From NCBI GenBank assembly GCA_965645245.1, contig OZ287070.1, positions 1,488,001 to 1,552,000 on the forward strand: DNA of 64,000 bases, written 5' to 3'. The notes below the pieces were generated by a model. The model saw nothing but the letters and a program-made list of their open reading frames with translations. It searched no databases and was not told where the DNA came from. Source of the stretch: Massalongia carnosa (taxonomy: Eukaryota). Position 1 is the stretch's first letter; each line of letters starts with the position of its first letter. Position numbers and translations under genes: made by a program. Positions 18,433 through 61,900 of this stretch are shown in pieces.

Positions 18433-21250
18433 ATGGCTTTACAACGCCCTACCACCCCTAACTTGGAGCTCCGGGCTGCTAAAGCTCATTATTCTACTCC
18501 TACCAAAACTGCAGTTCGAAGCGCCGTTCATTTCGCTGAGCGAATGAATTTATCCTACAGAAAACAGGACGTTTTCGAAACATTCAACGTTAGTACAACG
18601 CGTGGCTATGATGATGATGATGATGATGTATTCATACTCCGATATGACACCGGCCGTAGGCCGGCCCATGCGGGCAAAGCTATCTAAGTTATGTTACATG
18701 GAAAACCTTTCACAGGTGTAAAAACCATGTCCCTTGATACCCGTCCGATGTGACTACGGGTCGACGTCGGGCGGGAGACGCAGTGCAAAAGACGTGTGGG
18801 AACTGTAATGCCTTGTGAAAAGAGAAGAAAGAAAGAAAGATTCAACTATTGTTGATTTTACAATAATGTTGATGCTAGTGAGAATTGATTCAATAAGCCT
18901 GTTTTCATTAGCCAAGCAGTTAGTATCTTCAGAGTTTTTGATGATTTGGTCAGCTGCTGATAGTCGCTCGTGCCGGCGGCGCGAAACATCTGTTCTCTAT
19001 TGTCAATAAGTCTGCAGAACATGATTACATGTTCTGGAGTTTGTCTGTGCCAGCCACATGAGCAGGCCGGTGAGGTGACGGAGGGCACCCGTCGCTTGTA
19101 GAGGAAGTCAGCTAACCCGATCTTGCCAGTGCGGATTTGAGTTGTTAGAGCGCTTTCTGCCTTTTTTAGCTGCGTGTGTATTTTCAGCCGTTTTTTGCTC
19201 AGTGGGACTGATTGTGCTATGGAGGGTTCGATGACGCGATTTTGATATGCGCACCACGAGTCGTTCCAGACCTTCATTTGTCGTGCTTTGATTGTTTGCA
19301 TCTGCTTGTGTCGGGCCGTTGCCGCAACGGTAGCTTCGCGGTGCCACGCCGGGTAGACTTCGAACCATGGTGGGTGTGCCTTTGGTGGTTGAACTATTTT
19401 TGAGTCGATCAGTAGGCTTTTGGCCCAGATGTGTTTCAGCTCTCCCGGGGTGGGCTTTTGAAGTCGTTTGCGACCTGCCTTGCCTCGAAGTTTGTCAGCT
19501 ATTTTGTTGCATGCGGAGGAGATGATCTTCAATTGGCCTCCGGCTCGGAGCCGGTTCCTTGCCTGTGCTTGTAGCATGTCGAGATGCGTGTCTATGGGCG
19601 CTATGAATGTCTCTGCTTCTAGTACTGAGATGGGAGTGGCTTTAAAGGCACCGGCTATGGTGCGAAGGCAATTGTTTTGCATGACGGAGAGCTTGCTCGT
19701 TGACGTTTTTGACTTTTTGACTTCTTTGGGCATGTGCCATACGGTTGACCCATATGTCATGGCCGGACGCACCACGGCACTGTAAACCTGCATTGCCTTG
19801 GCAAAGGTGGCACCCCAGGTTGATGTGGAAAATTTTGTCAATGCCATGGATTGTTTGACCATTTTCTCTTGCGTTTTACGAACGTGCGGTCCCCATTTCA
19901 ATTTGGTGTCGATTTGTAGGCCCAATACTCTGATGTCCGTTTTAGGTTCAATTTCGGTGCTAGCAATATTGATGGATGCAGTCATGTTGAATCTTTTGGG
20001 ATTTCTGGACAAGTGTATGAGTTCGTACTTCGTCGGAGCGAATACGGACCCGTGCCGGGAAGCCCACGTCTCACATTGTCTGTGTATTGCCTCTAGAGTT
20101 TTGCAGTTTTCCTCGGTGCTTTTTCCATATGCCAAAATGTTTGCGTCGTCTACGAATCCTATGGCACTTGTGTTTTTGCCTGGTCGATCACATATTTCCA
20201 ATAGATCTGCATTGTAAAATAGGTAAAGAATGGATGACAGGGGAGAGCCCTGCGGGATACCCGTTCTTACCGCAAACCGCCCGGTGAACGCGTGGCTATG
20301 AGATGCTTCGAAATAAATCTTATTCTTCTTCTTCTTGTCAATTTCATCATAATCCTGATGAAGAAGAAACTCGAGGAAGAAAACAGCTTATTTCTTCCGT
20401 CAAAACTCGGGAGATGGAACGTATTATAGAAGAAGAAGGAATTGAAGCTCGCTCCCTGACTTGGTAACAATTGGGCTACGAAGTGGGATTGGATTGTAGT
20501 GGTCGTACGGTGCAAAGAGCTATGGGGACAATGGATTATCATAAATGCGTGTCTTGCAAGAAGGGCTGGGTCAACCTCAAAACTGCTGCTAAAAGAGTTG
20601 AATGGTCAGAATTCATGTTGACCAGATATCCTAATTCAGAGGATTGGAATCGTGTACGATTTAGTGATGAGGTGCACTTTGGTTGGGGCCCACAAAGTAA
20701 ACTTCGCATCATTCGAAAACCGGGTCAACGATACTGTCAAGATTGCATTCAAAAGGAGCACATGCCAAATGAGAAGGATAAAAAGCGTCATCATTGCTGG
20801 GCAGCCGTCGGGAGTAGTTTCAAATAATTTATACATTTCTACGATGTGGCTGGCAATATCAATGGAAAAATGAGTCAGAAGGCATACATTGATCAAATTC
20901 TTGAGCCCGTCGTCAAGCCATGGCTTGATAATGGTCAGAATTTCGTGTTGGAAGAAGATGGAGACTCAGGTCATGGACCAGGCAAATCAAACGTCGTTTG
21001 TACGTGGAAGGAGAAGAATGGACTAGAGCATTATTTCAATTGTGCCTCATCTCCCGATTTATCCCCCATTGAAAATTGCTGGCAGCCCGTCAAACAGGAG
21101 CTCTACAAGTATCCTCATTGGGACGACGTGACCACCAAGAGCTTGATTTATGAGGGGTAGGAGCACGTGTCTCAGTCATTTATAGATGAAAAAGTAGCTA
21201 GCATGCCAGAAAGGCTAAAAGCGGTCATTGATAAAATAACTGGTTATTGA
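18433..21250 (+). pseudogene. DDE_3-like transposase of copy A, disrupted
   Basis: MALQRPTTP...VSTTRGY(E) resumes as EMLRNK after removing the LINE and one TSD copy; in-frame stops near 20465, 20825 and 21158 plus a frameshift. Confidence 0.88.
18612..20286 (-). mobile_element. 5'-truncated Tad1-like LINE (3' part of RT, C-terminal Cys/His motif, 3' UTR, (ATC)n tail)
   Basis: GIPQGSPLS...FVDD; CSCG..QTPEHVIMFC; 15-bp TSD AACGCGTGGCTATGA at 18597-18611 and 20287-20301; (GAT)n run on + strand from 18610. Confidence 0.95.
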
Positions 21251-21332
21251 TTGTACGTAGCAATGCAGAAAGGGATGGTTTTTGGTGGGGTAAATTTTTG
21301 GCCGATTCCCGGTTATTTTGTCAGCCGCGTGG

Positions 21333-21338
21333 ACGCGT
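21333..21338. promoter_or_regulatory. Candidate MCB (MluI cell-cycle box) upstream of RFC2
   Basis: ACGCGT about 90 nt upstream of the ATG of a DNA-replication gene; overlaps the transposon TSD. Confidence 0.45.
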
Positions 21339-36447: not shown

Positions 36448-38489
36448 GATACAGCACTTTATGTACTGTGCTGACACCTAGTGGAAAGTGTAGAGTGGTT
36501 TTTGTATAAGAATGACTATGAGGTTGGAGAACGAGTGTGTTGTTGGCCGTGCGAGAATAATAGGTAGCAGTGTAAGGACAGGTTGTGGACAGCATTTAAG
36601 ATTTCCGGATTTTGCGGAATAAATTGTCGATCCCAGCCAGACTGCGGTCTTTGGGCTTCAAGCGAACGGAAGGCCTTATGGTAGTCAATAGACCAACTGC
36701 ATCGAAGTAAGCACTATGCTCTATTCAACGAAGCAAGGTGTTGGAGGAACCATACAAGAATAGTATTAATTATGAAGGAAAAGAATATACAGAATACACA
36801 GGGTTGTTCAGTCCTCAGCCCAGGTCGAGTGAAAGAAGGCTGGGGCCAAGGACGATAAGAAAAGCTACGGGTAAAAATCTGGGTTTTTCAACACTAAAAA
36901 GATACTTAACTAGTCCTCTGTACCGCAGCGGCGGTGTTACGTCCGCGCACAGGGATCTCAGCATCTCACTTTGAGACCTTACTTTTAGGTACAGAGTACG
37001 TTCTGGCTTATAAACCAAGAACATACCTACATACAACCTTCGTCTATTTATCGAGATGATAGCCGGTGTACAGAGTGCTCTGATTTTTAAAACCAGTGAT
37101 CTCACCACCAGGAAACATAGATACACGATGTCATTATTTGGCCCACCAGTGGCATGGGCCCACCAGTGGCATGCTTCTTGTGAATGCTTTGTGTGCTGTC
37201 GAATTTATCAGAGGAACCTTCGGCGCTATGCATGGATGTAAAATATCCAGCTTTGTTCAGGTGCAGATCCGAAACAAATTTGACGTACATAATATCCAGG
37301 CCTATTGATAGGGCGAACATTGGACAACGCATAGAAAGTACAGGGTTGTTTTCATACAGGATTTTGTTGCTACGGTATTTAAATGGCCACATCATGACAA
37401 GCTCAAATACAGCGTGCTCCTCCTTCAGCTGCCACAGCTAGCAGCCCTCCTCTTCGGTCATGACGAACCTGAATATTTCGAGACGCGCTAAATCGACGAA
37501 GGGTATAACATAACCCTAACTGATGCACCGAACGACTTTGGAGGTAGGTTACGTCTGAACTGTGCTCTCACTACACCAGAGTTGCCTGGTCGATTAGTCA
37601 GTATGTGGGATCGAAGCCAATAAATACCGGTAAAACTGGGCGTACCATGAGGCCGGGTGACCTTGCCCCAGATTACTCGAATCTTCGTTCCTCGAACCTC
37701 TCGTTGTGCGCGATAGACAAATGCGACCTTCTTGCCAAGATAGAATCTATGAAGGATGAGATGTATTCAACAGACACCGTAATAGAAAGAGCAGGGTAAA
37801 CAGACGTAGCTGCTTTGGGGTCGTCCACGCCCTCAATTTTGATCAAGCTGTAGTCCAGTTCAGCTGCGTTTTTCGACAACGAATCCGCAAACCAGCAAAC
37901 CGACGCACCTAGTTCCAGGATTCGTGTTACGTTTTCCGCGTTGATAGCTGAGATGCCGGCCCCTGGGACACGAGAGAAACGGTTATTTCCCATACTATAG
38001 TCATTCCGTATTCTAGCTTCAACATGAATGCTATAAGTATAAAAAGACTCACTTAACGTATACTAAATTGGGAGTCAGCAAGCTCATGGAAATGCGCTAC
38101 ACATTTGGAGTACTCACATCTATGTCCTGCGTTGGAAGGCATCTTAACCACTCGATCTGAAGAGATGAGAGAGGGGTTTTAAGGGAATCCAGCGCGGCTG
38201 TGAGAGTTAGTGGGAAGAATGGTTGTTGTTGTAATTGATTGATTCCGCTTCGAAATATGAAATATGAAATTGGTAGTGGCCACGCTAGTACGAAGATAGT
38301 TAGAATCCTTTTTTAGGGCTTCCAGCCCTATAGGTTCGGATGCAGCATTACTATCCCTCTCGCTGTTACCCAAGCACCCCCCAAGCTAACCATTATTGGT
38401 TAAGAAGCGCTAAATCTTAATTATCTGACCAATCAATGTGAACCTGATTACCCCTATTTAACAAAAGTTCAAATTTATAGCTATATCAT

Positions 38490-38985
38490 TTACTCGTCCC
38501 AATTCATATGAATAGCTTCCCAACAATTGGCTTTTCTACAGCAGGGCCTGATTGGATGACATCCTCCACAAGCCCATATAGTCTGAGCAACTCTTCGCCT
38601 TTTTATTCGCCCATTAACATCTCTTTCAGCCAGTGGCTGTCCCTTTCGCTTTGAAGGTCGTGTTTTGTTGACTTTACAATGCATACATCTTTGTTTTCTT
38701 TCAAGACGAACGTAATGATGAACGGGAGGTGCTACTAAAGCATCAATCGCGGTGTTAATGCTTACCTTTGGTGGAACGAGCCTGATGCCCGCTTGATTTG
38801 ACACCAATTCGAGGGCAATCTGACGAAGAAACTTGGAACGAGTAAGCTTTTTTTCCTCGAGGTGGAAAGAGTTCATCGAGTAAAGTTTAAACGCGTTCAG
38901 TCCGACTGCATCCAATATAAAATGAATAAAGGCCACCAGTAACGATCCGTACGACGATCGTATGAATAAACCGCCGAGGTTCCAT
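38490..38985 (-). pseudogene. piggyBac-like transposase C-terminal fragment with Cys-rich domain
   Basis: YSYDRRTDRYWWPLF (frameshift) FILDAVGLNAFKLY...RSKFLRQIALEL; RCMHC...TIWACGGC...CCRKANCW. Confidence 0.7.
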
Positions 38986-39187
38986 AACAGTCAAGAAAAA
39001 ATTTGATGTTCGAATGACTAATTCAAATTTGCTAAATGCGGAAGCTAGCTAATAATGGTTAGCTTTGGGGGGGTGCTTGGCACGCAGGTGACAAAAAAAA
39101 TTTTACTCACAAATTCTGACCCCACCAAACCATCAAATTTTAACCCCTTTTCAACCACCACATTTTATACACCATCGTTTAGCCATG

Positions 39188-39401
39188 TGTAAGAACCACT
39201 ATCCAGGGAAGACGAATAGTAGTCAGCTACCTAAGAGACTAAGCATGAAGAAGAGAAATCTATCTACAAAGAAGAATGTGAAATCTATATGCCCCGTTTG
39301 CCCTTCTTCTCGAAGTTTCCATCCGGCTCTAGAAGCTTATCTCCGAAGCTTCGGTCGGAAAGAGCCGTTGGATTTAGCGCTCCCACGCCCGAGTCCTGAC
39401 A
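39188..39401 (-). repeat. 3' LTR (TG...CA)
   Basis: TGTAAGAACC...GTCCTGACA; matches 47036-47096 plus 47908-48060. Confidence 0.96.
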
Positions 39402-39437
39402 CTACCACCTTCTTGGTTAGCGAGCTCTTGATCGCTG

Positions 39438-42400
39438 TCATGTGATTAGCTTCGGTCGCGGCTTCTTTGGATATTTCCGATGATATTCTTCCACAGTTTC
39501 TTTTGAATTCGCGAAATCTTCGGCCGGATACCATGTGTTATCCGGTAGGTAATTGCTCCATTTTACCTTGTATTGTAGCTTCTTGTTGAAAGTTCTTGAA
39601 TCCAAAATATCATCAATTTCAAATTCTTCCTCGTTGTCAATTATTACCGGTGGTGGAGGCGGGGGTATTTGTCCGGGCAATGGGTCTTTACTTGCTGGTC
39701 GGAGTAATGATGAATGGAAAACATCGTGTATTTTCATCGATGCTGGAAGATCTAACTTATAGCTATTCCCCAAAGCTTTTAATATCTTGTACGGTCCGAT
39801 TATCTTATGATTTAGCTTTTTCGAAGGCCTTTCCGTTTTGATATTTTTGGTTGATAGCCAAACTTCATCTCCTTCTTTATAGGTTGGTGCCTCCTCCCGA
39901 TGATTGTCCGCGAATCTCTTCTGACTTTCTTGGCCTCGTACTAGGTTTTCTTTTCCGAATTCCCAGATTTTCTCCATTGCTTGGCCGATATTTTTTGCTC
40001 GAGTTTTCAATATTCTTTCTCTGGCCGATCCAGTAGATGCGTCAATCGGATAGAAACTCATCCTCGGTTCATACCCATAGTTGACCTGAAATGGAGATAA
40101 TCCACTTGAAGCTGAGACACAGGCATTTGATGCGAACTCGGCCATCGATAGCCACTCTGTCCAGTCATCTTGCTGATAATTGACATAGGTTCTCAGATAT
40201 CGCTCCATTTCTTGATTGGATATTTCGCTTTGGCCGTCGGTCTCGGGATGGAATGCGGTTGATAACTTGGCTTTTATTCCCAGCATTACGCATAGCGATT
40301 TCCATACTAGCGATACGAATTGAGGTCCCCTATCTGAGATTATCGTGGTCGGTAGGCCATGCAATTTCCATACATGTTTTATTAGCATTCGGGCCGTCTC
40401 TTCGGCAGTTGTCCCTTCTTCGTCCATGGTGCATGGAATGTAATGATGCATCTTGGAAAATCGGTCTACTACCATTAATATTGCATTATGACCTTTGCTT
40501 TCAGGTAGGCCAGTTACGAAATCCATTGATATATCTGTCCAGGGCCGGTCTGGTATAGGTAGTGGATTTAATAGTCTGGAATAACCGTCCCTTGGAGCTT
40601 TTGCTCTTTTGCATGTATGACAATTTCGAATGTATTGTTCTATGGTCCCTTTCATCTTTGGCCAAAAAAAGAATTTCTTCATCATCTCGTAGGTCCGCTT
40701 TATTCCCGGATGGCCAACGGCTGGTTGATCGTGAACTTCCTGTATCAGCTTCATTCTCTTTTCTTCGGGGACAAATAGTTTGGCATTATTCTCGAGCGGA
40801 TCTTTCGACTTTTCTGCGTTGATCTCGTTCATTTCAAACCCCATTTCCTTTTGAATTTGAGGGTCTAGGCTTTCGAGAGGTAAGATTATCTGATGTTGAT
40901 GCCTTTGCCTGTCATCTTCCTCTGATTCGGACCTGTCTCCTGGTCTTCTTGTTAGTGCATCTGCCTTTGTATGGAATTTTCCAGCTTGGTATGCGATGAC
41001 AAAATTGAAATCGGCCAGAAATTCAGCCCATCTGGCCTGTCGCCTATTTAGCTTTTTGGTTGTCATGAAATATTCCAAGCTTTTGTGGTCGGTCAACACT
41101 TTGATTGGGAGCTCGATGGATTGCAGCTCAGGCCTCCATTGCTCGAAATATTTGATTATTGCAAGCAATTCTTTATCGTATATTTCATAATTGCATTCGG
41201 CTGGCAACAGGCTCTTTGAAAAGAAGGCTACTGGTCTGATAAGTCCATCTTCACCTCTTTGCGATAATACTCCGGCTGACACATAATCAGATGAATCCGA
41301 TTCCACGAACGTTTCTCGGCTTGGGCTGAAATGCGCGAGGACCGGGGCCTCGGTCACCCGTCTTTTCAATTCGGAAAAAGCTGCTTGGCAGGCTGGGGTC
41401 CAATTGAATGGTTCGTCTTTTCGAGTTAGATGTACGAGGGGTTTGGCTATTTTGGAGAAGTCTTTGATAAAACGTCTATAAAAGTTGATAAATCCTAGAA
41501 AGGCCTGCACCTGTTTAAGATGCCTAGGGATGGCCCATTCGACGACTGCCTCAATTTTGGTAGGGTCCATCTTGATCCCATTCCGCCCGACTACCACTCC
41601 TAGGAACTTTGTTTCGGTCACATGGAATTCGCATTTATCCACATCAGCCTGAATACCAGCTTCTCGAAGCTTTTGTAGAACTTTTCGAACATGTTTTCGG
41701 TGGTCAGTCATGGTTTCACTATAAACCAAGAGATCGTCCAGATAGGCTATTAGGAATTCGTCTAGATATTCTAAGAAGGTATCGTTGATGAAGTTCTGAA
41801 ACGTAGCAGGGCCGTTGGTCAGTCCGAAGGGTAATACTAGAGATTTATATGACCCAAATCGCGTGCGGAAGGTTGTGAGATCTTCGTCCTTTTCGGTTTT
41901 CATCCTAAGTCGGTTAAAGGCATGTCGAATATCTATTCTTGTCAAAAATCTAGCCCTGGCCAATCGAGACATTATCTCAGATATCAGAGGTAGGGGATAT
42001 CGATTTTTTTTGGTGATTTCGTTTAGCTTTCGATAATCGACGCAGAACCGAAGTCCTCCACTCGGTTTCTTGGCGAATAGTATCGGCGAGGCAAATGGGG
42101 CCGAGCTGGCTGTAATAAATCCTTTCTTCAGATTTTCTTCCAAATATCTCTTGACCAGTAGGAGTTCTCCCTCTGACATATTATATAGCGGGGCATGCCC
42201 AGGTCCTTCTTTAGCTTCTAGCAATTCGATGGTATGGTCATGCTTTCTATGAGGGGGCAGTTCATCAGCTTTTTCCTTAGAGAAAACATCAAGAAAATCG
42301 TGATACTCGGGGGGGACTATGGTCTTAGGATCGGTGATTGGCTTTTCTCCCTTGGCTAGTTCAAAGTTGATATCTCTCAGCGAGACTGCAAATATCTCGA

Positions 42401-43106
42401 CATCCTTTTGTTTCGCTAATACATTAAATGGGTCTGCACCTATCATCGCTATATCCAGGGCTTCTTCGCTCTCGGCGTCTTTTCTCCAAGACTTTTGCTT
42501 CAAGATATCTTCCTTTCTTGATCTTCGAACTGAAATCGGGTTCGAGTTGCTATGATTCTTTTCATCGGGTTCGTCTCTTTTCAATATCTTCTTTGGTTGG
42601 AATATAGGCGTGGTGTCCGTTGTTGAGCCCGGTTCTTCTCTCCTGATTGGCAACGATGGGAAAGGCCTTTCGGGGGCACCTAGATGATTGCAATGATCGG
42701 GACGAAAAGAAATCGAATTCGTATGCCCATGATAGCTAACACCATGTTTTCGCATCCAAGGCTTGCCAAGAATAATCGTTTGTTGGCCCAGCTCGGTGAT
42801 CAACATTGGTGTTGAGCTCTCGGTATGGTTTCCAATTTTCAGAGATGGATAAATGGCCTGGGTAATAGGCTTGCCTTTTCTTCCATCATATGCCTTTATC
42901 TCTTTCCGTCTATTTAACGTCACCGGTGAGATATTAGCCTTTTCACATATTTCCTGCGCAGTTAGTCTATCAACAAAACAATAACCAGTAGATCCAGTAT
43001 CAATCATCGCTCTCGTATTATTAAAAATATTTCCTACGATACAATTCTCCATTACTGGATGGTCATCGAATAAATCATCCTCCATAAAGAAAGATGTGAT
43101 AACCAA
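39438..43106 (-). CDS. pol: Gypsy Pol polyprotein (protease, RT, RNase H, integrase, chromodomain); open frame, probably reached by -1 frameshift
   Basis: MIDTGSTG; LPFGLTNGPATFQ, YLDD; VESDSS, NYEIYDKELLAI; H..GH..C..C, SMDF, SDRG, QTDG-like ETDGQSE; FEIDDILDSR..LQYKVKW..TW. Confidence 0.95.
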   Translation of the reverse strand: MVITSFFMEDDLFDDHPVMENCIVGNIFNNTRAMIDTGSTGYCFVDRLTAQEICEKANISPVTLNRRKEIKAYDGRKGKPITQAIYPSLKIGNHTESSTPMLITELGQQTIILGKPWMRKHGVSYHGHTNSISFRPDHCNHLGAPERPFPSLPIRREEPGSTTDTTPIFQPKKILKRDEPDEKNHSNSNPISVRRSRKEDILKQKSWRKDAESEEALDIAMIGADPFNVLAKQKDVEIFAVSLRDINFELAKGEKPITDPKTIVPPEYHDFLDVFSKEKADELPPHRKHDHTIELLEAKEGPGHAPLYNMSEGELLLVKRYLEENLKKGFITASSAPFASPILFAKKPSGGLRFCVDYRKLNEITKKNRYPLPLISEIMSRLARARFLTRIDIRHAFNRLRMKTEKDEDLTTFRTRFGSYKSLVLPFGLTNGPATFQNFINDTFLEYLDEFLIAYLDDLLVYSETMTDHRKHVRKVLQKLREAGIQADVDKCEFHVTETKFLGVVVGRNGIKMDPTKIEAVVEWAIPRHLKQVQAFLGFINFYRRFIKDFSKIAKPLVHLTRKDEPFNWTPACQAAFSELKRRVTEAPVLAHFSPSRETFVESDSSDYVSAGVLSQRGEDGLIRPVAFFSKSLLPAECNYEIYDKELLAIIKYFEQWRPELQSIELPIKVLTDHKSLEYFMTTKKLNRRQARWAEFLADFNFVIAYQAGKFHTKADALTRRPGDRSESEEDDRQRHQHQIILPLESLDPQIQKEMGFEMNEINAEKSKDPLENNAKLFVPEEKRMKLIQEVHDQPAVGHPGIKRTYEMMKKFFFWPKMKGTIEQYIRNCHTCKRAKAPRDGYSRLLNPLPIPDRPWTDISMDFVTGLPESKGHNAILMVVDRFSKMHHYIPCTMDEEGTTAEETARMLIKHVWKLHGLPTTIISDRGPQFVSLVWKSLCVMLGIKAKLSTAFHPETDGQSEISNQEMERYLRTYVNYQQDDWTEWLSMAEFASNACVSASSGLSPFQVNYGYEPRMSFYPIDASTGSARERILKTRAKNIGQAMEKIWEFGKENLVRGQESQKRFADNHREEAPTYKEGDEVWLSTKNIKTERPSKKLNHKIIGPYKILKALGNSYKLDLPASMKIHDVFHSSLLRPASKDPLPGQIPPPPPPVIIDNEEEFEIDDILDSRTFNKKLQYKVKWSNYLPDNTWYPAEDFANSKETVEEYHRKYPKKPRPKLIT

Positions 43107-43126
43107 CTCATTTACCCCCGCCGCGT

Positions 43127-46100
43127 CTATGACGGAGGTGCGTCTTTTCCCGAATCTTCTGCTTCTGCGCTCATCTCGCTAACCCGTCCCTTTCTAGGCT
43201 GAGGGCAGTCTTTGGCCATATGCCCGGTCAGATCGCAGTTAAAACATCTTCCTTCCTTCATTCTTTTCTCCATGATTGGATCGGGATGGGGGGCTCGGGC
43301 CATAAAGGGCGTTGAAGATCGGCTGCTGGTGGCGGACGGCGTTGCGGGAGTACGGGTTAATGCGGGGGTGGAGGCCTTTACGATGGAGGTGGTCCCACCG
43401 GCCGTGCTTGCGATAGGTACTGAGGGGCCAACAAAGTTCTTTCGATAGCCTTTCGTCTTAGTCTCAACCTCGCGGATGGTTTGATCAGTATGCATGCATA
43501 GGCGTGCGAATTCATACAAATCGGTGGCCTTGTAGGCCTCGACGGCTAGCATCTTCTGGAGCTCAAAGTTCATCTTGTTGCGGAGCTCATTCAGTAGGGT
43601 CTTTTCGGAATACCGTATTATCTGGCAAATAAGACCCTGCTTTTGGGTAAGACCCTCCCGGATATAAGACCCGGTTCAAATTGCTTATTTCCGAACATAG
43701 GGGGGGTCCTGCACTATAATTTCGAGATTTTGGGATGACAAATTATCAACAGGGCAATTTTGCGCAAAACAGTAGTAAAAATTCTTTAAGCATCAGTAAA
43801 GATCCCCTGCAAATCAATCGTCATCAACATCCATCTCACTATCGCTATTCAAAACGGCCCCAGATTCAGCACTCAAAACATACTCCCTAACCTCAATGAC
43901 GCCTTCAGTTTCGTCATCCTTCTGCACCTCCTCGCTATTAACAGTTGTATCAGGCTCCTCTACCTCTTTTTTATCCTCCTGACCGGTAGAAAGCTTCCAA
44001 TCGCCTACCGTTATGCCTGGTATGTCTTTAACTGATAACTCATCATCCTCCGACCCGTCTGCAGCAAGAGACAATCCCAACTTTCGAAAGGGTTGACAAA
44101 TCAAAGAAGAATGCTCTAAGTGCATTTCCCTCCATTCTTGTCCCACCCATTTTGTTAGCATAATTCGTCGATCTCCTACCGTGTATGAGCCTTTATTCCA
44201 TTTCTCGAAGTGCTCATCGTAATGAATGTCGGCTAGCCCCGATATTCGATTCTTCAAAGGTTTATTAATGGCGACGTCTAGAACTTGAATAAACCCGGTG
44301 CAGCCGGAAGGAATAAATGATGCTGTGACGTTTAAATCTTTAAGGCTTGTTTAACCTAAAATTTGATAGCAAACATGAGCAGCTTGAAAACAAAATGCTC
44401 AGCTATTTACCTCTTCGGTTTCTTGTCCCGCAAACACATCTAATGATAGAAAACGCCGTGTATTAGCGTTATGAAGTCCTAGAGTAGCGTATTTATACTG
44501 CTGTTTTAGCCATCGACACATGACTTTTCCATTGCGGTAGGCCTTTGGATCCCATTGAACTACTACTCCCGAGTCGTACTGCGTCATCTCTTTCTTGATT
44601 CGACTGCATTTTGTGCTATCTTGGCCTTTAAATATGAGAAGAGGTTTGTGTCGATTAATGCCGTCAGCAGAAACATAAATCATCAAAGTGGCTTGTCTTT
44701 TGTCCCATCCAGACCGATGGGTTTTAATCCATACAGTTTTGGCACCTTTAAAATCGTAGCATTGACCCTGCAGGAACTCGTAAGCAATAGGAGTCTGATC
44801 CATATTGCCGATATCGCAAAGACGAAATCTTCCTCCTCCATGCAAAGGAATTTGACCCAAAAGCGGTTGAGAATTGCGACGATTAAATTGTAACCACAAC
44901 TGGATAATATCGCGAAAGTTCTCGGGACTCTGATATGAACCGAATGCCGTTAGTTCAATATCATCAAAAAAATTAACATTTGATTATTCACCTGCTGAGC
45001 TTTTTTGGTAGGATTTCTGACAGCTATACCACACCTTCGTCTGAATCCACGAAACTAACCATTAGAGATTTGAACTCGGCATACTCAGTCATTCTTCCGG
45101 ATGCTTTAGTCACTCGATGAGGATATAATTGACCATACACCTGACGACCCTGACGAACAAACCAACGTTTATTGATTTTACGTCCAGTGTTACGGGCTTC
45201 CATGAATAACTCCAAAAGTCGCCTTTCAAGCTCAGGCTCTTTACATACACCCATAGCTTTGCTGTCTTTTCGTTTACCTTTAGGTTGAGCGGCGATACTC
45301 GAACTACTTTCAATCCACTTTCTAAGCATCGTGGTAGTAATTCCAAGATTGTTGGCTGCAGCATATTTACTGATAAGCTTCATACTTCCATCCTTCTGAG
45401 ACTTCCAGGTAGTTTGAGCATAGCTAATAGCAGCTAGTTTCTGCTCTCTGGTGTAGGATACTCGATGTCGAGGAGCATCATGTTCGTCGTCAGAAATATC
45501 GCGAAGTGTAGGATGATCGGCCACCTCTCGATGCAGACGAAATTGTTTAATGATAGAAGCATTATCATTGGAACAACCGGGCATGCTAGGCATTGAAGAC
45601 TGCATAAACGCTTTCTTGGGAAGTCGGGCTGAATGCAAGATGCGAAGACTGGTGGACTTTGAATTAGGCCCAGGACGAGGCTGGTTTTGAGCCTGCATAG
45701 AACTCTGGACGTGCGAGGGAGCCATGAAATAAATCAATGAAAAGATGATAAAGGTGGATAAAATGATGAGGTTATACGTAACTGGGATACCTCCAACGCG
45801 GGCCAAACTCCTTCGTGTTTTTCCCCTGCTTACTAAGATCTACTCCCTTATAAGATCATACCTGTTTATAAGACCCCCCCTGCTTATAAGACCCCGTTCC
45901 AAATGACCCTCGGGTTGACCACCCCCCTATAAGACTAGAGTCTTATTTGCCAGATAATACGGTATTCAAGTTCGTTGGCTAAGCGTTGGAATTCTGACCA
46001 GAAGGCATGGAATTCTCGATATTTACCCACTTGTTTAAGGTCGCGGAATTCTCGCAGTGCTGTTTGTTCCTTGTGAGGGTCACCATATACTCGGTTTAAA

Positions 46101-46770
46101 TCATCGAAAATCTCTTCAGCAGTGGTAAATGGTTTGGTAGACTCCTTTCTAAATCTAGAGGCTATATGCTTGACTGCCTCACCACCAACCCGAGTCCGTA
46201 CGTATGCCTTTTTCATGGCCTCGGTAGGTACCAATCCGCATTGCCTTCTAGCTTATTTCGCATGCTAGATAGCCAGTCCTCGAAGTTGTCGTCTTTATTA
46301 TTTTCGAGGATGGGTGGGTCAGGAAGCTTGGAAGATTTGCCAACTCCTTCGGGGGCAGTGTTGACGCGGTAGTGGTCGTGTGTATGCACATTCTCGGCCG
46401 ATGCGGTGCTTGCGGACGATATGTTGGTGTTTTGAAGAAATTGGATTATCACCTTAGCTTTATCCAATTCCTCTTGGGCCGAGTCCCGCTCATCGCGAAG
46501 GGTCCGGGCTATCTCTAACGTTTCATTGAATCTTTCGGCCACCTTGTTCAATAGGTGGGTCTTCGTTCGGGACTCCGTCTTCAACTCAGTTATCATTTCC
46601 ACCACCCGCTGGGGGTCCTGGCGGACAAATTCATTCAGTCTATCCACGGAGTCGATGCTATATGGGGAGTCATCATCAATAATATTAGGGACAATGGACT
46701 CACGTCGGCCCTCCATGGGTTCGTCCATAGTGAGCCTACTCCTTCGAGGCTCGCTGATTACTCGGGGCAT
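43127..46770 (-). pseudogene. gag: Gypsy gag, split by a pogo element and by a 1-nt deletion near 46225
   Basis: KLPDPP; NADWY(P)TEAMKKAYV; LANELEY|SEKTLLNEL rejoins across the TA insertion; zinc knuckle CFNCDLTGHMAKDC; stop TAG 43127-43129. Confidence 0.9.
43613..45962 (-). mobile_element. pogo/Fot1-like (HTH + DDE_1) DNA transposon with intron-containing, damaged transposase
   Basis: 23-bp perfect TIR CCGTATTATCTGGCAAATAAGAC; TA duplication at 43611-43612 and 45963-45964; SYTREQKL, NMDQTP, KPLLIFKG, LSLD, IPSGCTGFIQVLDV; frameshift and TAG near 45060; subterminal TAAGACC repeats. Confidence 0.93.
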
Positions 46771-47035
46771 TTCTTCTTTCTTTCTTGGGGTTGTTCTTAT
46801 CTTGTGATCTTCTATTCGATGGCCGAGAAATCCTGGTTTCTAAGATCCTGGGTTCTGGTTCTGGGTCTGGGTTCTTCTTTTGATTCTGGTAATTCTGGTG
46901 GCCTAGAAATCCTTGCTTCTAAGGTCCTATGATCTGGTTCTAGTCTAAGTTCCGGGTTCTTCTTCTAATTTTCCTGGTTGAACGGTTTAATATCGTGTTC
47001 AGGATAGCAAGGGTTAAAGAAGATGCTTAGTCTAA

Positions 47036-48060
47036 TATAAGAACCACTATCCAGGGAAGACGAATAGTAGTCAGCTACCTAAGAGACTAAGCATGATGAT
47101 GATAAATTCTTACACCGATATGTCACCGGCCGAAGGCCGGCCCATGCGGGCGTGGTTCTATATGACTATTGTACATAGGAAAACCTTTTAAGGAATAAAA
47201 ACCTAGTAACCAGAATTATCGCCTGCGGGATCCCCATGACCCCTCAGTGTACCTAATAACGTGTATCTGTGAGGTCCTTGAAAGAATAAGGAAAAGAACG
47301 AAAGAAAAGGGGAAGAAGTCAAACATTTCAAATGCTGTGTCGACGGGAACTATCCGTACAGCATGGTCGCTGCAATTGAAAACTGTTTTAGTATATCTGC
47401 CCGCATTAACCATGCTGTCAGCTTTTTCAATTTTGCGGAATTTTCAATTATCGTGCGATAATTGTTAGTTTTCACTTGATTAAATAATTCATTTCTTCCG
47501 TCTATTAGCTGACAGTGCATGATGACGTGTTTGGCCGTCTGCCTTGGCCATCCACATATGCACGCCGGTGAGTTTACATTGGGTACCCTTCGGTTGAAAA
47601 GAAAGTTGGCTAGCCCGATTTTCTCCGTGCGAATTTGTGAACTCTCCGCTTTTGCCAAATTGCTGTGAATTTTTAATCTCTTTTTGTCAAGCGAAGCTTG
47701 TTGAGCCTCGGTGGGGAGTGGAATGCGATTTTGATAAGTCGCCCATGTTGACTTCCATATTTTCATATGATGCTCCATGAGCCGCGTATGATGTGCCCGT
47801 TGGGCCGTTCGCGCTTCTCTCAGCTCCTTGAGATATTCTGGACTGGCCTCGTACCACGGGGGCGCGGAAGGCGGTAATCTGACGGCGGCCTCAGAGACTA
47901 AGCATGAAGAAGAGAAATCTATCTACAAAGAAGAATGTGAAATCTATATGCCCCGTTTGCCCTTCTTCTCGAAGTTTCCATCCGGCTCTAGAAGCTTATC
48001 TCCGAAGCTTCGGTCGGAAAGAGCCGTTGGATTTAGCGCTCCCACACCCGAGTCCTGACA
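47036..48060 (-). repeat. 5' LTR, interrupted by a LINE fragment
   Basis: 47036-47096 plus 47908-48060 reconstruct the 214-bp LTR with two G/A differences (one turns terminal TG into TA). Confidence 0.95.
47097..47892 (-). mobile_element. Heavily 5'-truncated Tad1-like LINE (ORF2 C-terminus, 3' UTR, (ATC)n tail)
   Basis: QIRTEKIGLANFLFNRRVP..CICG..QTAKHVIMHC; 15-bp TSD AGAGACTAAGCATGA at 47082-47096 and 47893-47907. Confidence 0.93.
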
Positions 48061-48062
48061 CC

Positions 48063-49181
48063 ATGAATAAAGCTACCACACCTGTTTTGGAGTCGCATGA
48101 GGCTCAGACCCATCATCCTACCCCCACACGGCCAAAGTTCAGGGTGCAGTGGAGTTTTGCGATGCGATGAAGATTCCTTATTTCAAAGAAGATGATTTTC
48201 GTGTTTTCGGCACTTCAAAACAAACTGGCTGGAAAATGTTGACAAGAGAAAATTCCAGTCGTACTAGACACAATGCCGACATTCCTGAAACACGTGGACG
48301 TCATTCAATTGTGACCCCGAGACACATACGAGAGATGGAGCGTATTTTGGAGACAGAAGGCATAGAGGCTCGCGGGTTAACGTGGGTTCAATTGGGCTAC
48401 GAGGTGGGACTGGAGTGCAGTGGTCGTACAATTCAGAGAGTTATGGGTACGATGAATTATCATAAATACATTGCATGTAGAAAGGGCTGGGTCAGCGAAT
48501 CGACGGCTAAACGTCGTTTTGAATGGGCTATCGGCATGAAAGAAAGATATCCTGATGATGAAGACTGGTTTTCTGTACGATTCAGCGATGAGATGCATTA
48601 TAGCTATGGGCCTCAGGGGAAAATTCGCATCATTCGCAAGCCGGGTCAACGATACTGTCAAGATTGTCTTCAAGAAACGAACGAATCAACTGAAAAAGAC
48701 TTGAAAAAAAAGCATGCTTGGGCTGCTGTGGGCCACAATTTCAAGTCAGATATTCGTTTATATGACGTTCCGGGCAACACTAATGGAAAGATGAGTCAAA
48801 GGGTCTATATTGATCAGATTTTGAAGCCTGTCGTCAAGCCGTGGCTTGACAGAGGTGATGATTTCTGTCTGGAAGAAGATGGTGATTCAGGGCACGGTAC
48901 TAGTAAAAACAATATCGTACGCAAAATGGAAGGAAGAAAATGGGTTGAAAAGCTATTTCAACTGTGCTTCGTCTCCTGATCTCTCACCTATTGAAAATTG
49001 CTGGCAGCCACCTAAGCAGTATATTCGCAAATTCCCTCATTGGGATGAGGCCACCACGGTAGGACTGATTCATGAGGGGTGGGCCACGGTTTCGCAAAAT
49101 TTCATCAATAGCAAGGTGGCTGAGATGCCGAAACGGCTGCAAGCGGTGATAGATGGTGACGGTGCGATGACGGGTTATTGA
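48063..49181 (+). pseudogene. DDE_3-like transposase of copy B, two frameshifts
   Basis: MNKATTP...; [45 protein letters not shown]; frameshifts near 48130 and 48925; clearly homologous to copy A. Confidence 0.9.
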
Positions 49182-49310
49182 TAGTAGTAGGAGTAGCAAT
49201 AATAATAGTGTGGTGCCACGATGCAAATAGGGGTCAAACTTTGATGGTTTGGTGGGGTCAAAATTTGTGAGTAAAACTTTTTTTGTCACCCGCGTGCTTG
49301 GGTAACAGTA

Positions 49311-49473
49311 CTCCCTTGCTATGGGCAAGACTACCTCATTCGGTTAGATCCAACCTCATGCGGTTAGATTTAACCCGTAAAAGGGAAGGCGGGTTGCGGA
49401 ACAGTATTGAATTATCAAATAATGCGGAGAGGACGCCGTACGGAAAGGACCAAAAAGAGGCACCTCATTGCGA
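49311..49473 (+). repeat. Dispersed ~165-bp repeat, copy 1 (probable terminal segment of an unidentified TE)
   Basis: Near-identical to 57916-58080 (ACTACCTCATTCGGTTAGATCCAACCTCATGCGG...GGCACCTCATTGCGA). Confidence 0.9.
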
Positions 49474-50181
49474 TTGCCTCAGTACCTCAAACATGCCTGG
49501 CTAAGCCCATTCGGGTTAGCCTTACAGAACATTAAGCCCCTTCGGGTTAACTGGCTGACTACGCAGCACATCTGTAGCAGTACCTCAGACCTGCCTTGCC
49601 CTCGCCACAGCTAAACCTATTCAGATTAGTATATTATTAGTCTAAAGCTAAGCTAGTTTAGTGAATAGTTTGGGTTAAGACTCTGTTTAGCTTACTACGT
49701 ATGCTTCGGGCGGCAGGTCTGAGTTCAAAACTCTGTAATTTTGCCAGGTTCGCGTTTTTTTGGTGACAACACATGTATATTTCGTGCTTAAGATAAAAAA
49801 TCATCGTTTTTCACGTTCAGGACAGGATCAACAATAACACATGATAATTGTTATATAATACTTCATTATCGCCGCTACTTTCAGATATGTTTATTGAATG
49901 TCCTAAAATTTAAACGCCCTGCATGCGTTGCGCGAATATCTTCCTAGTCGAGCAACATCGACTCAAATTGTTTCTCAAATCCCGACAACAGCACGACAAT
50001 ATCAAACTGAGTCTTGCTCTTCAAATCAACGGTCGGCGCTTATATCCCATCATATTGCCTTGACGGATCAAGTTATTGTAGTCCTTCAGGGCTCCGAACT
50101 CGAAAATCTAGTCGTCGTCCTTGCTAGCGTGCTTTTTGACAGTTCGAAACTCGATCAAGATTGTAGCGCTATTACATCAAT

Positions 50182-50945
50182 ATGAACGACGCGATACAGG
50201 CGTTGACTCTTGAGAAGATCGAGAGCGTTGTTGATCGTTATTTCGGGTTTCGTCTAAAGAGGGCGCAGGTGGATGCTCTTCATCATCTGTTGTGCGATAA
50301 GATGGATTTGATTTTGATAGCAAAAACAGGCTTCGGAAAAAGCATACTATTTCAAGGTGCTCCTTTGATGTTTTCGCCTTGCAAGTCGGTGTTGATAATC
50401 ATGCCTTTGATTGCACTGGAAGAAGAGCAATGTGAAAAACTTACTCTCATCGACAACTGTCGACCTATAGTGTTGAACGGAGATAATAACAACTCGTCTA
50501 CCTTGACTGCTATTCGTCATAGTCGTTACACTCATGATAAGTCGAATAAATCTGTTTGTATACAAGTCAGTGCTCTAATTGTTACTTACAGTATTCACGA
50601 GTCCAGAAATAGCAACGTCGAAATTGTTAACGAAATGGTTCTCAGTCATTCATCTTATTTCTCAAATCTTTGTCTGTTGGCTATCGACGGGCTGCATCTG
50701 GTATCGGAATGGCGTGATTTTCGACCTGAATACTTCAATCTTGGGGTGCTTCGAACATGATTGCCAGATGGAATACCCTTTTTGGGAGTTTCTGCAGCGT
50801 TGGATGAAGAAACCTTGAACTGCGTCAGAAGTCAATGTGGGTTTCATGATGAAACTCGACTTATCAAAACAGCTCTTGATTGACCAGAGATTTACATTCA
50901 AGTCAGTTCTTTGTTGAAATCACAAGCTGAAATGCTTGATCTTCA
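50182..50945 (+). pseudogene. RecQ-like SF2 helicase N-terminal fragment
   Basis: LKRAQVDAL; LILIAKTGFGKS (Walker A); IMPLIALEEEQ; LAIDGLHLV (degenerate DExH); W.DFRPEY..LG.LR*LPDGIPFLGVSA; stops and frameshift. Confidence 0.85.
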
Positions 50946-57799: not shown

Positions 57800-58080
57800 A
57801 TATAGTACTGAAAGAACTCCTCGGCTACTTTGGGCAACACTACCTCATTTGGTTAAATTTAACCCGAAAAAGGGAAGGCGGGTTGCGGAACATATCTATA
57901 TAGTACTGAAAGAGTTCCCCTGCTACTTTGGGCAACACTACCTCATTCGGTTAGATCCAACCTCATGCGGTTAGGTTTAACCCGAAAAAGGGAACGCGGC
58001 TTGCGGAACAGTACTGAGTTATCAAATAATGCGGAGAGGACGCCGTACGGAAAGGACCAAAAAGAGGCACCTCATTGCGA
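57800..58080 (+). repeat. Tandem partial plus full copy of the dispersed repeat
   Basis: ATATAGTACTGAAAGA..GCTACTTTGGGCAACACTACCTCATT occurs at 57800 and 57898; first copy lacks a ~20-nt internal segment; second matches 49311-49473. Confidence 0.9.
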
Positions 58081-58957
58081 GCATGCATTTCATCGTATGA
58101 TATCGTAAAACTTTGCAGACCTATTAATCACATCAACCATAGTCGATATCTCAAAACTTGCGTGCTTTTTCGCCCGTTTGCCGTGGGGGGAGGAGGTCTC
58201 TTCGAGAAGCATCAGATTTTCTTTGAAATCATCCCTAAGAGGTTTAGCGCGGACTTGATTGGGTTTACGGTGCTTTTCGTGTTGTTTGCCTATCATCGCA
58301 GCTCTTTTCATCCTAGCCTTTTCACCGCAGCTCTTTCACCGCAGCTTTTTTCCATTTCAATCAGGTAAAGAATCTTCTCCATCGCAGCTCCCTTCATCTC
58401 AGCCAGCTAATAATTCTTTCTACTTTAGCTCTTCATGTCTCAACCCGTTTTTGCTCTTACTCAGGCCTCCGCACGTTCCGTAAATCAAATCGAACGATGC
58501 CGCAACAATAAAAACAATTCGCCGTACGGCGTTTTTCGGGTAAGAATTCTCATTTGAATTTTGACGTTTTGATTAATTATTTCATTAGGTGCAAAACAAA
58601 CTCCTGTTATTCAGTCTCGATCCCGTTTTGTTTCTTCAGAGGCTCCCATTTTTTCTTCTATCGTTTCCGAATTTCGGGTTGACGCGTTATTGATTGATTG
58701 ATTGATTTTTCTTACGCCGATATGACACCAGCTGAAGCTGGCCCATGCGGGAGATACTACATAGGCTATATAAAGGCAGAAAACCCGAACGGGTAAAAAA
58801 CTGCTCCTGCGTACCAGGTTTGTAGAGGACTCGCTCTTTCCCCGGGTTGATCTCTACGGTTTGGGAAACCCGCTATACCCGTTATGCGCCTGAGTAAGTG
58901 CAAGAATAAAAGAGAAGAAAAGAAAATAAGTAGAAGAAAAAACCAATTCTCCTCTCA

Positions 58958-61900
58958 TTATTGCTCCGTCATTTGCGCGGCAATGGTGTACTGTGTTAGT
59001 ATGCCCGTACGCATAAGCCATGCAGTGATTATTTTGATCGCTTTGGGGTCTGTTATCAGTTTTTGATAATCCAGCGAGCCAGCTGCACGCAACATATCGA
59101 TTCTATTATGCAATCCGCAGAACATTATCACATGTTTCGCCGTTTGAAAGCGGCTTCCGCACAGGCAGGCCGCGGACTCAATGTCTGGCACCTTGCGTTT
59201 GAATAGAAAACTCGCTAACCCGATTTTCTCTGTTCTAATTTGAATTGCGAGGGAGCTTTGCGCCTTATTCAGCAGCTTGTGCGTGTTCAACCTGTTTTTG
59301 TGCAATGGACCCGACTGTGCTATTGTTGGATCAAGCGTATGTATTGATTGATACGCTATCCATTTGTCCTTCCATTTTTCTTTAAATCGTTTCGCTATGA
59401 TTCCGTCTCTTTCTCTTTGAAGTGCGGCATATTCTGCTCGTTTTTCCTCTTGTGCATTCTCCGCTTTTTCCCATGGTGGTGTGCGTTTGGGCTTTCTCTT
59501 TGTTGATACTTCAGCTGTCAGCTTGGCCACCCATCTCTGTCTACGAGCTCCCGGTGTTTCTCCAATAATCCGTTGTCGCCCTCTTTTCCCTTTCAATCTC
59601 GTTCTGATTTTCTCGCATGCCTGTTCTATGACTTTTGCCTGACCGTTGTGTTGTAGCCTCGATCTACCTTTGGCCTGCAGATGATCCAAATGTTGCGTCA
59701 ATGGACAGATGAATGTTTCCGCCTGTAACACCTCGATGGGTGTGGCCCTGTACGCTCCGGCTACTACTCGTAAACATTTGTTTTGTACGATCTCGAGTTT
59801 GCTTTTCCTCGTGACTTTGACGTGCTTTTGTGTTTCCTCCGGCGTGTGCCATACCAGAGAACCATGGGTCATTGCCGGGCGTACCACCGCCGTGTACACG
59901 TGACGGGCTTGTAGGAGGGTCGCACCCCAAGTGGCTGCGGCGATTCTAGTCAGCGCTCTCGTTTGTCTCGTCATTTTCTTCTGTATCTCTTTGTAGTGCG
60001 CCGACCAATTGAGCCTCGTGTCTATGTACACCCCCAGCACTCGTACAGATTTCGTGACGTTGAGTAGTTTGCCGTTTACTGTGAAGGAAGCTTCGAGATT
60101 GAATTTCTTGGGATTTTTTGCTAGATGTATGAGCTCGTATTTATGCGGCGCGAACACGGAGCCGTGGCGTTTCGCCCATCGTTCGCAATTCTCGTGTATT
60201 TCTTTCAATGTTTTGCAATTTTCTTCCGTGGATTTGCCATATGTCAGGATGTTCACGTCGTCTACGAATCCTATGCCTGCCGCGTTTGTGCTGGGTCTAT
60301 TGCAAATGTCTAAGAGGTCCGCATTGTAAAAGAGATATAGAATGGGAGATAGAGGAGATCCCTGAGGGATTCCTATGCTCAGCGGAAATGCGTTAGTGGT
60401 GCGTTGATTAATCGTGAGCGTGGTTTCTCTTTCTTTCAAGAAACTATCCGTCCATTTGGCTATCCACTCTGGGATCTTTCGTTTTCTCATGTTGTGAATG
60501 AGCCTACGATGAGAGACGGTGTCAAAGGCTCCCGATACGTCTATGCTCAATAGAGATGCCACTTTATCGTTACCCTGATTCCATACGGTGTGCACTTGTT
60601 CAGTGAGCAGCTCCAGTGCTGTTTCCGTTCCGCGGCCCGGCCTTGCACCCATTTGAGTATCCGGGATCAGTTTAAATTCTTCCGTCAGATGGCTAATTTT
60701 CCTTGCTATAATGGATTCCAATGCTTTGCCCAACGTGTTCAACAACGCTATGGGTCTCCATGCCTTGGGATCCGTATAGTTTCCTTTTCCTGGCTTCTTT
60801 AGCGTGATAGTGTTGGCGATTTTAAAGACTTTCGGATGATATCCTTCATTCACACATGCTTGAAAAAGTGGTGTCAGCAATTTGATTAGGTTTTCTGAAC
60901 AGGCTTTGAGAATTCTATTTGTGATTCCATCCGGTCCTGGGGCTTTGTCTGGCTTTGGCTTTCGCAGCGCCGCCGCCACTTCTTCTTCCGTTATCAGTGC
61001 TGGACATTCTGGTGTTGGAGGGTACGAATATCCTACGAGATCCCCGAGATCCGCGTTAGGAGGAGGGGGAAAGAAGGACTTCTTCAGCATATTTACTCTC
61101 TTCTCGAACGTGTCTGCTATCGTATTGGGATTTTGTGCTGTTGCTAACGGGGGCATTTTTGGAATTTCTCTTGGTGCGTCGCTTCTGTCTTTGCCCCATT
61201 TTGCGAGTCGGAAGAGTCCTGTTCTTGATGCTGCAACTTCGGCCATTTGTTCTCTGAAATGAAGATTTCTTGCCTTACCGATGATTTTCTGTTTTTTGTC
61301 GTTCATTCTGATGTAGTTTTTCCAGTCTGACAGATTTCTTTCCGCCGTCCAGATCCTACGAAGCCTGCGGGTCTCCTTCGTTGCCTCCTCGCACTCTCTA
61401 TTCCAGAAGGACTTCGCCTGGGGACTAGGTTTAGCCCATGGTACCGCCTCCTGAACGATTCTTTTGAGGTAGTCTTGAATATCTGCAGTGTATGCATCAA
61501 TTTCGTTGGCGCCTCGTACGACGCGTGGTGTGGGGGCATTTCTCTCAACTTCTCTCAGTTTATTCATGTCCAGGAGTTTCCAGGCTCTTCGGCGGGGAGG
61601 CGTAAGGGGTTCACAGGTGAGGCGGAGCCTCGTCGATATTGGTACGTGATCTGAGTCTTGATTCAGCTCCGGGACTGTGATACAGTGTTCCAATCTTTCT
61701 ACGAGATCTTCCGTCATGAACACCAGATCGATGGTGCTGAATGAGTTTCTTGCCTCCCATGTCACTGTTCCTCTTGGCAGGGTGAGCGAAAGATTTTTAC
61801 TTTCAATGATGTCTAGTAGCTGTTCGGACGCCTCGTGTTGACCTCGCACTCTCGCACCTCCCCAATGTGGATGATGAAGGTTGAAATCCCCTAGCAAGAT

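Follow-up and report, generated by a model that had tools for sequence, protein, structure and literature searches.

In the canonical Tc1/mariner reaction, the two strands of a TA dinucleotide are attacked with a 2-bp offset, and in the wider IS630-Tc1-mariner group Tc4/Tc5 and TBE1 make 3-bp duplications built around T and A (TNA, ANT). The known DD37E families, so called for the 37 residues between the last two residues of the catalytic triad, include TRT, mosquito, and L18. The fungal element impala is ~1.3 kb in length. As far as the available sections of the respective sources go, impala of Fusarium oxysporum is a DD37E element (PMC7325037), has a single open reading frame (ORF) of 340 aa and a printed terminal motif (PMC5579170), and requires TA, as do the related mimps, 150 of 158 repeat matches being followed by this dinucleotide (PMC3599309). 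The element described here, copy B, lies in a 64,000-nt stretch of Massalongia carnosa DNA (positions 1,488,001–1,552,000 of contig OZ287070.1, assembly GCA_965645245.1), which in its whole length is called the window and whose numbering is used throughout. Copy B is very probably a dead copy of a Tc1-like transposon family that makes 5-bp target-site duplications and is widespread in filamentous ascomycetes.

Flanking duplications and target sites

Copy B is bordered by two exact copies of the pentamer CTTGG, at 39076–39080 and 49297–49301 of the plus strand, identified both from the sequence and from an empty-site alignment. Its raw inverted arms, 39080–39151 and 49226–49297, are 72 nt each and 92% complementary; because their outermost G...C pair comes from the flanking 5-mer, the terminal inverted repeats (TIRs) proper comprise 71 nt and are located at 39081–39151 on the plus strand, starting with CACGCAGGTGACAAAA, and at 49226–49296 on the minus strand, starting, when read as the reverse complement, with CACGCGGGTGACAAAA. 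The terminal 16-mer, with up to two mismatches allowed, occurs four times in the window, at both ends of copy B and of a second member of the same family, copy A (18357–21336, plus strand, the element itself occupying 18362–21331), which is flanked by GACGC at 18357–18361 and 21332–21336. In shuffled windows the mean number of occurrences was 0.07, and four were reached in none of 100 shuffles.

Copy B interrupts one TIR of another element, the second TIR of which is intact, so the window holds its own control for the duplication. In an alignment of the reverse complement of 38355–38405 with 39040–39080 joined to 49297–49316, the two interrupted host pieces share CTTGG only, and the intact arm has this pentamer singly, not in tandem. 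The sequence-only reading of this locus had claimed TIRs of ~70 bp starting with CACGC(A/G), an exact CTTGG duplication, and an insertion into the TIR of another element whose partner arm has CTTGG once; all three claims are borne out, and the tandem CTTGG in the host TIR which that reading had named as the finding that would count against it is absent. The value of copy B lies in this clean in-window control, the copy itself being an inactive relic.

Taken alone, copy B would fit equally well a 3-bp duplication combined with a TIR one base pair longer, i.e., TTG flanking GCACGC...GCGTGC, and the detection of the arms itself ran from 39080 to 49297. In copies A and B alike the outer bases of the pentamer are complementary, so that the inverted repeat extends by one pair. 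The extra terminal base would, however, differ between the two copies (G in B and C in A), and the wider set of insertions described below leaves this explanation very improbable.

The survey of flanking duplications was based on 80 related loci from metagenome contigs, the termini of which were located by BLAST of the flanks together with the conserved 16-mer. Both termini were placed in 31 loci; five same-site repeats in related assemblies were merged, and copies A and B were added, giving 28 distinct sites, 26 from metagenomes and two from the window. For six loci, representing four distinct sites (L007, L010, L037, L028, L047, and L052), the ends were set by hand from the BLAST output. Left out were L032 (degenerate termini and no repeat), L065 (a spurious right match), L040 (left flank missing at the contig start), and the loci with one or neither end found. 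An exact 5-bp direct repeat is present at 16 of the 28 sites (16 of 29 with L032 counted in), and one more site has 4 of 5 bases matching. Repeats of other lengths are rare: 2 bp at three sites (none of them TA), 3 bp at two, 7 bp at one, and 4, 6, or 8 bp at none, and none of the 28 sites has TA on both sides. When left and right flanks of different sites were paired in 10,000 permutations, the mean was 0.04 exact pentamers and the maximum one; a shifted control using the pentamers five bases further out gave no matches. When the window and the full set of 80 loci were searched by tblastn with the family protein P0010, only copies A and B came up besides the primary matches, and no TA-type relative.

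These counts bear on two rival explanations. That the pentamers agree by coincidence or through faulty end-calling could be argued from copy B, which by itself is a single 5-mer match, and from the hand-placed ends; it is exceedingly improbable in view of the 16 repeats found against the permutation mean and of the zero counts for 4 bp, 6 bp, and the shifted flanks. Moreover, the empty-site alignment is independent of end-calling, and in the same window the TA duplication of a pogo-like element was read correctly. As to the 3-bp duplication, the outer bases of the pentamer are complementary at five of the 16 exact sites and non-complementary at 11, where all five bases are repeated though the outer ones cannot pair; the survey set therefore excludes a 3-bp duplication with an extra repeat base. 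An exact repeat of 3 bp only was seen at just the two sites mentioned.

The TIRs of the family are 66–80 nt long, with repeats of up to 87 nt in the related loci, where the elements measure 1240–1506 bp, and their outer 16 nt (CACGCGGGTGACAAAA) are conserved. Three elements with intact 365-aa ORFs, 96–98% identical to one another, are inserted at different sites (CCTGC, ACCCC, and CGTGG), and the family has therefore moved recently somewhere; the intact ORFs suggest that active elements exist. The trait is also old, because the subfamilies carrying the duplication share 42–52% protein identity.

The target logo was prepared from 63 distinct repeat ends read outward, out of 76 found at up to three mismatches. 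Position 1 is C or G in 48 of the 63 ends, position 2 is C in 33, position 3 is A or T in 43, position 4 is G in 39, and position 5 is G in 32. Outside the pentamer, position 7 is T in 37 ends and position 8 is A in 32, with the dinucleotide TA at positions 7–8 in 19 ends, whereas no other offset has it in more than eight; there is no bias at positions 10, 12, 13, and 14. The chi-square p values of the bias are between 1e-9 and 1e-5, and loci that retain the duplication hardly differ in this respect from those that do not. Both ends of one insertion were pooled, which forces symmetry at positions 1–5, but not at 6–8. The preferred target is thus weakly palindromic over 11 bp, TA-N-[SCWGS]-N-TA, and the pentamer that becomes duplicated forms its centre. 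The right half of the copy B site fits this palindrome (G, T, and A after the pentamer), and its left half does not. From the two different pentamers of copies A and B the sequence-only reading had concluded that the 5-bp stagger is real and sequence-flexible, and it had proposed further copies and a target logo as a check. The stagger stands, with 16 of 28 sites against 0.04, while full flexibility gives way to the palindromic bias.

Transposase and proposed reaction

By homology, the element belongs to the Tc1/mariner superfamily. It has the DDE triad in an RNase H-like domain, an N-terminal paired helix-turn-helix (HTH) region, and TIRs enclosing a single transposase ORF, yet it departs from the classical definition in its target, as the hallmark TA abuts both ends at none of the 28 distinct sites. 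Pfam recognises HTH_Tnp_Tc3_2 and DDE_3 in both window copies as well as in the intact relatives; the E values of HTH_Tnp_Tc3_2 are 9e-7 for copy B, 4e-4 for copy A, 3e-10 for P0006, and 1e-5 for P0010, with P0006 alone passing the Pfam curated cut-off and the other three falling below it. A protein search with a 276-aa piece of copy B gave 415 proteins, and the few named ones among them come from Dothideomycetes, Leotiomycetes, and Sordariomycetes. In an alignment of 16 full-length relatives (~360 aa), the D, D, and E residues are conserved with 37 residues between the last two. The corresponding residues of P0010, D165, D262, and E300, are conserved in 94%, 94%, and 88%, respectively, of 88 full-length members.

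The profile built from these 16 sequences had a sole match among PDB sequences, the catalytic domain of Sleeping Beauty (5cr4, E 6e-13). Against 1.84 billion representatives it matched 418 clusters (50% identity) at E<=1e-30, so the transposase family is large; the 150 proteins listed from this search all have E<1e-58 and belong to the family, i.e., the list stays short of the outgroups. In the AlphaFold model of P0010 (mean pLDDT 67) helices occupy residues 10–117, and Foldseek places chains of the Mos1 transpososome, 5cr4, and Metnase on top (E 3e-9 to 1e-4). The model is weak (pLDDT <50) at residues 119–132 and 170–203, where four conserved cysteines lie. These cysteines, C125, C128, C188, and C191, form a CxxC...CxxC pattern conserved at 92–100% in the 88 full-length members, with one CxxC in the linker and the other in the clamp-loop region, and may constitute a zinc site. 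Three residues after the second D there is a Ser-Gly pair, each residue 90% conserved, followed by a three-residue insertion, and the catalytic E sits in a conserved SPDL-PIEN motif.

In copy A, the second D and the E are separated by 37 residues within one ORF. The same spacing had been claimed for copy B from its sequence. The catalytic codons are found there at 48587 (D), 48878 (D), and 48993 (E), and the distance between the last two is 115 nt, i.e., 38 codons plus 1 nt; the claim holds when the +1 frameshift is read through and fails in an uninterrupted frame.

Transib elements have CAC-type termini and make 5-bp duplications. It could thus be an unrelated 5-bp enzyme, Transib/RAG-like or integrase-like, that recognises the CAC termini and moves the present elements in trans, the more so as the link between the transposase and the duplication is an indirect one. 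Such mobilisation is improbable: the Tc1-like ORF fills the elements almost end to end, no other transposase lies within them, the same terminal 16-mer accompanies the ORF across 38–67% protein identity, and the presence of nearly identical, intact copies at new sites points to elements that move by themselves. The figure of 5 bp for Transib also appears under PMC1131882, and Transib is reported to be missing from fungi (PMC5751038). Membership of the element itself in Transib was rejected, as Pfam finds only DDE_3 and the Tc3-type HTH, and the fold matches are to Tc1/mariner proteins, not to RAG1-like ones.

An intact element of the family would be a compact cut-and-paste transposon of ~1.27–1.4 kb, coding for a transposase of ~360 aa with an N-terminal Tc3-type HTH and a C-terminal DD37E domain. 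A transposase dimer bound to both ends would capture bent target DNA and attach the ends of the transposon to its two strands at points 5 bp apart, and gap repair would then yield the 5-bp duplication. The TA steps one base outside the duplication could be read by each protomer, or could act as flexible kink points. Candidate determinants of the stagger are the Ser-Gly pair, the three-residue insertion, and the four cysteines. The DD37E spacing was rejected as its cause: it marks the family and does not explain the stagger, because impala is also DD37E and yet needs TA. A broader proposal, advanced tentatively and with somewhat more doubt than confidence, is that a large Tc1-like clade of Pezizomycotina gave up TA insertion in favour of a 5-bp stagger into TA-N-CCWGG-N-TA, TA being kept in each half-site and strand transfer moved inward. 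This would be the longest stagger known in the IS630-Tc1-mariner group, and it may rest on a remodelled target-binding surface, with the Ser-Gly pair in place of the target-contacting Pro-Lys of Sleeping Beauty and with a clade-wide CxxC...CxxC set in the linker and clamp loop, which could bind zinc and reposition the two active sites.

Overall, the evidence supports the 5-bp duplication as a property of the whole clade that is old, has been active recently, and goes with a preference for palindromic targets. Several points weigh against this. Copy B is controlled by a paralogous sequence, the second arm of the host repeat, and an orthologous empty site was not seen. Twelve of the 28 sites have no exact 5-bp repeat; age, recombination between copies, or chimeric metagenome assembly would fit these cases, and target-like pentamers are still frequent at each of their ends (CCTGG at three left ends), which would agree with ends joined by recombination or mis-assembly. 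Since many of the metagenome loci stem from a single series of related assemblies, they lack taxonomic independence even after the merging of near-identical flanks, and the survey consists of metagenome loci with copies A and B rather than of a genome-wide census of the source genome. In L047, a relative whose termini differ, the repeat is 7 bp long. Finally, the termini, duplications, target bias, domains and fold, and nesting order were observed directly, whereas the role of the encoded transposase as the maker of the 5-bp stagger, and its way of making it, are inferred.

The subfamily comprising L047:668-2024 and L052:226-1585 has termini of another type, CAAGGCCTGGCC... The 7-bp repeat of L047 is CCCAGGT, with a CCWGG-type pentamer in its centre, and L052 is without a repeat. 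Judging from the one case, this subfamily could have a wider stagger.

Nested insertions and neighbourhood of copy B

The window has the look of transposon-rich DNA of a filamentous ascomycete and offers a clean dated stack of five nested insertions. The Tc1-like element first entered a TIR of a putative piggyBac-like remnant with duplication of CTTGG and was later split at its start codon by a Ty3/gypsy retrotransposon with duplication of CCATG; the latter in turn received a pogo-like element, with a TA duplication, and a fragment resembling a long interspersed nuclear element (LINE).

The Tc1-like part of copy B accounts for ~1,338 bp (107 + 1231 bp) of the 10.2-kb span, and the remainder consists of nested foreign elements. 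The left arm, of 107 bp (39081–39187, plus strand), ends with the ATG of the transposase gene at 39185–39187. The right arm, of 1231 bp (48066–49296, plus strand), was recognised by Pfam and tblastn and carries the transposase in three frames, 48066–48170, 48149–48979, and 48846–49181, with 63–69% identity to P0010 in tblastn. B-related copies in public runs carry an additional G after 48129 and lack one letter at 48923, the two points of frame change in copy B, which is therefore a pseudogene; its decay includes, besides the split, two frameshifts and the loss of the first conserved cysteine, which is mutated to tyrosine. The codons of the four cysteine positions lie within 48149–48979.

The nested Ty3/gypsy retrotransposon, recognised by Pfam and by matches between its long terminal repeats (LTRs), occupies 39188–48060 on the minus strand, bears a chromodomain, and is inserted exactly at the transposase start codon of copy B, between the CCATG duplications at 39183–39187 and 48061–48065. 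Its LTRs, at 39188–39401 and 47036–48060 (the latter interrupted), match each other at 171 of 173 and 67 of 70 positions, and because they are ~99% identical over the 173 nt, the insertion looks young. The pol ORF lies at 39438–43106 and gag, in two pieces, at 43127–43573 and 45968–46770, all on the minus strand. Pfam identifies RVT_1, RNase H, integrase, chromodomain, a zf-CCHC zinc knuckle, and Retrotrans_gag, and a protease is also present. The gag gene is interrupted by the pogo-like DDE_1 element (43613–45962, minus strand; Pfam and inverted repeats), which is 2350 bp long, has 31-nt inverted repeats, and is flanked by TA at 43611–43612 and 45963–45964. It is an internal control, in which a canonical TA duplication is readable in the same window.

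The upper LTR of the Ty3/gypsy element is interrupted by the LINE-like fragment (47108–47888, minus strand), which is flanked by an imperfect ~30-nt duplication of the LTR sequence. At its 3' end this fragment is ~80% identical over ~100 nt to a LINE-like insert within copy A (~18610–20287, minus strand), and further pieces of the same LINE-like family lie near 58700–60400.

Positions 38000–50500 of the window were compared with the contigs of the public runs X1, X3, X4, and X7; among the runs sharing window DNA are a lichen metagenome and three coded organisms, and X2, X8, and X9 contain few or none of the window words. Joints free of the Ty3/gypsy element, 39182 -> 48061 with five letters fitting either side, are present in X4 (three contigs) and X1 (two contigs), 39182 being joined to 48061/48063 when X7 is included, and joints free of the pogo-like element, 43610 -> 45963 with two letters fitting both sides, in X3, X4, and X1. 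A 1268-nt contig of X7 represents an uninterrupted B-like element with 30 differing letters. These contigs confirm the nesting order in copy B. No joint spanning copy B as a whole (39080 -> 49302) was found among the listed contigs of X1, X3, X4, and X7, which is uninformative either way. The window and the related contigs differ mostly by transitions (A>G, T>C, G>A, and C>T), as would be expected of repeat copies that have diverged and perhaps of repeat-induced point mutation.

The host of copy B is a ~0.72-kb remnant (38363–39080 and 49297–49308) with inverted repeats of ~40 nt. The intact repeat is located at 38363–38402 on the plus strand, where the target pentamer, here in the form CCAAG, occurs once. 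The inner part of the other repeat lies at 39046–39080 on the minus strand, and its outer 7 nt at 49302–49308, after copy B. The host-element ORF (38490–38936, minus strand) codes for 148 aa and is cysteine-rich. It has no Pfam match, and a language-model feature search gave a score of 0.94 to clusters carrying DDE_Tnp_1_7 and zf-Tnp_2; it is possibly a C-terminal remnant of a piggyBac-type transposase, which is to be taken as a lead only. No clear duplication was seen around the host element. Just to its right, the segment 49312–49473 recurs at 57916–58080, ~8.5 kb downstream, with 93% identity, and represents an unclassified repeat.

Significance and comparison with known systems

Insertion at TA counts as one of the traits that define the IS630-Tc1-mariner group and is built into the rules of annotation pipelines; a widespread fungal clade with 5-bp duplications would therefore be missed or misfiled by them. 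The family also offers natural material for studying how a DDE transposase changes the spacing of the two strand-transfer events, which Sleeping Beauty engineering approaches by mutagenesis of the same loop. If the relatedness to impala is confirmed, the TA-using impala and the 5-bp family would make a pair for swap experiments.

In domain order and fold, the family is the same as Tc1 and Sleeping Beauty (DD34E) and the mariner element Mos1 (DD34D). It differs from all three in the CxxC...CxxC cysteines and in a 5-bp duplication at a GC-centred palindrome, not at TA. Its Ser-Gly pair takes the place of P247-K248 of Sleeping Beauty, and it carries three extra residues after the second D motif. 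In the available text of PMC8934666, P247-K248 are implicated in target-site selection and integration, and the end of the Mos1 clamp loop contacts the target DNA (R186). Tc4/Tc5 and TBE1 show that the IS630-Tc1-mariner group is not bound to an offset of exactly 2 bp; in the present family the duplicated core is 5 bp long and C/G-preferring, with TA outside the core.

Beyond this group, the analogy is with retroviral integrases and phage Mu transposase, which, as outlined in the same available text (PMC8934666), have a stagger of 4–6 bp and weakly palindromic targets with flexible pyrimidine-purine steps. The likeness lies in a strand-transfer complex of two-fold symmetry, the attack of which would span ~5 bp of bent DNA; the shared ancestry, however, is limited to the RNase H-like core, and the Foldseek matches (E 0.07–0.3) are far below those to Tc1/mariner. 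Transib differs in having a RAG1-like transposase, as opposed to the Tc1-like one found here. In the open literature no Tc1-like element was found described as making 5-bp duplications; this coverage did not extend to Repbase entries and subscription journals, so a prior description is possible.

The closest named relative is impala, as judged from published descriptions. The family accession KDN61748 is absent from the text tree in the supplement of PMC7325037, and cluster look-ups of 20 family proteins gave no impala or Fusarium name. The two share the DD37E signature and a single ORF, of 340 aa in impala and ~360 aa here. The impala/mimp motif, as printed in the available section of PMC5579170, agrees by eye at 10 of 15 positions with the common CACGCGGGTGACAAAA type and at 14 of 15 with that of the locus L036, at a one-base offset. 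They differ in the target: TA is required by impala, whereas here TA is found on both sides at 0 of 28 sites and an exact 5-bp repeat at 16 of 28.

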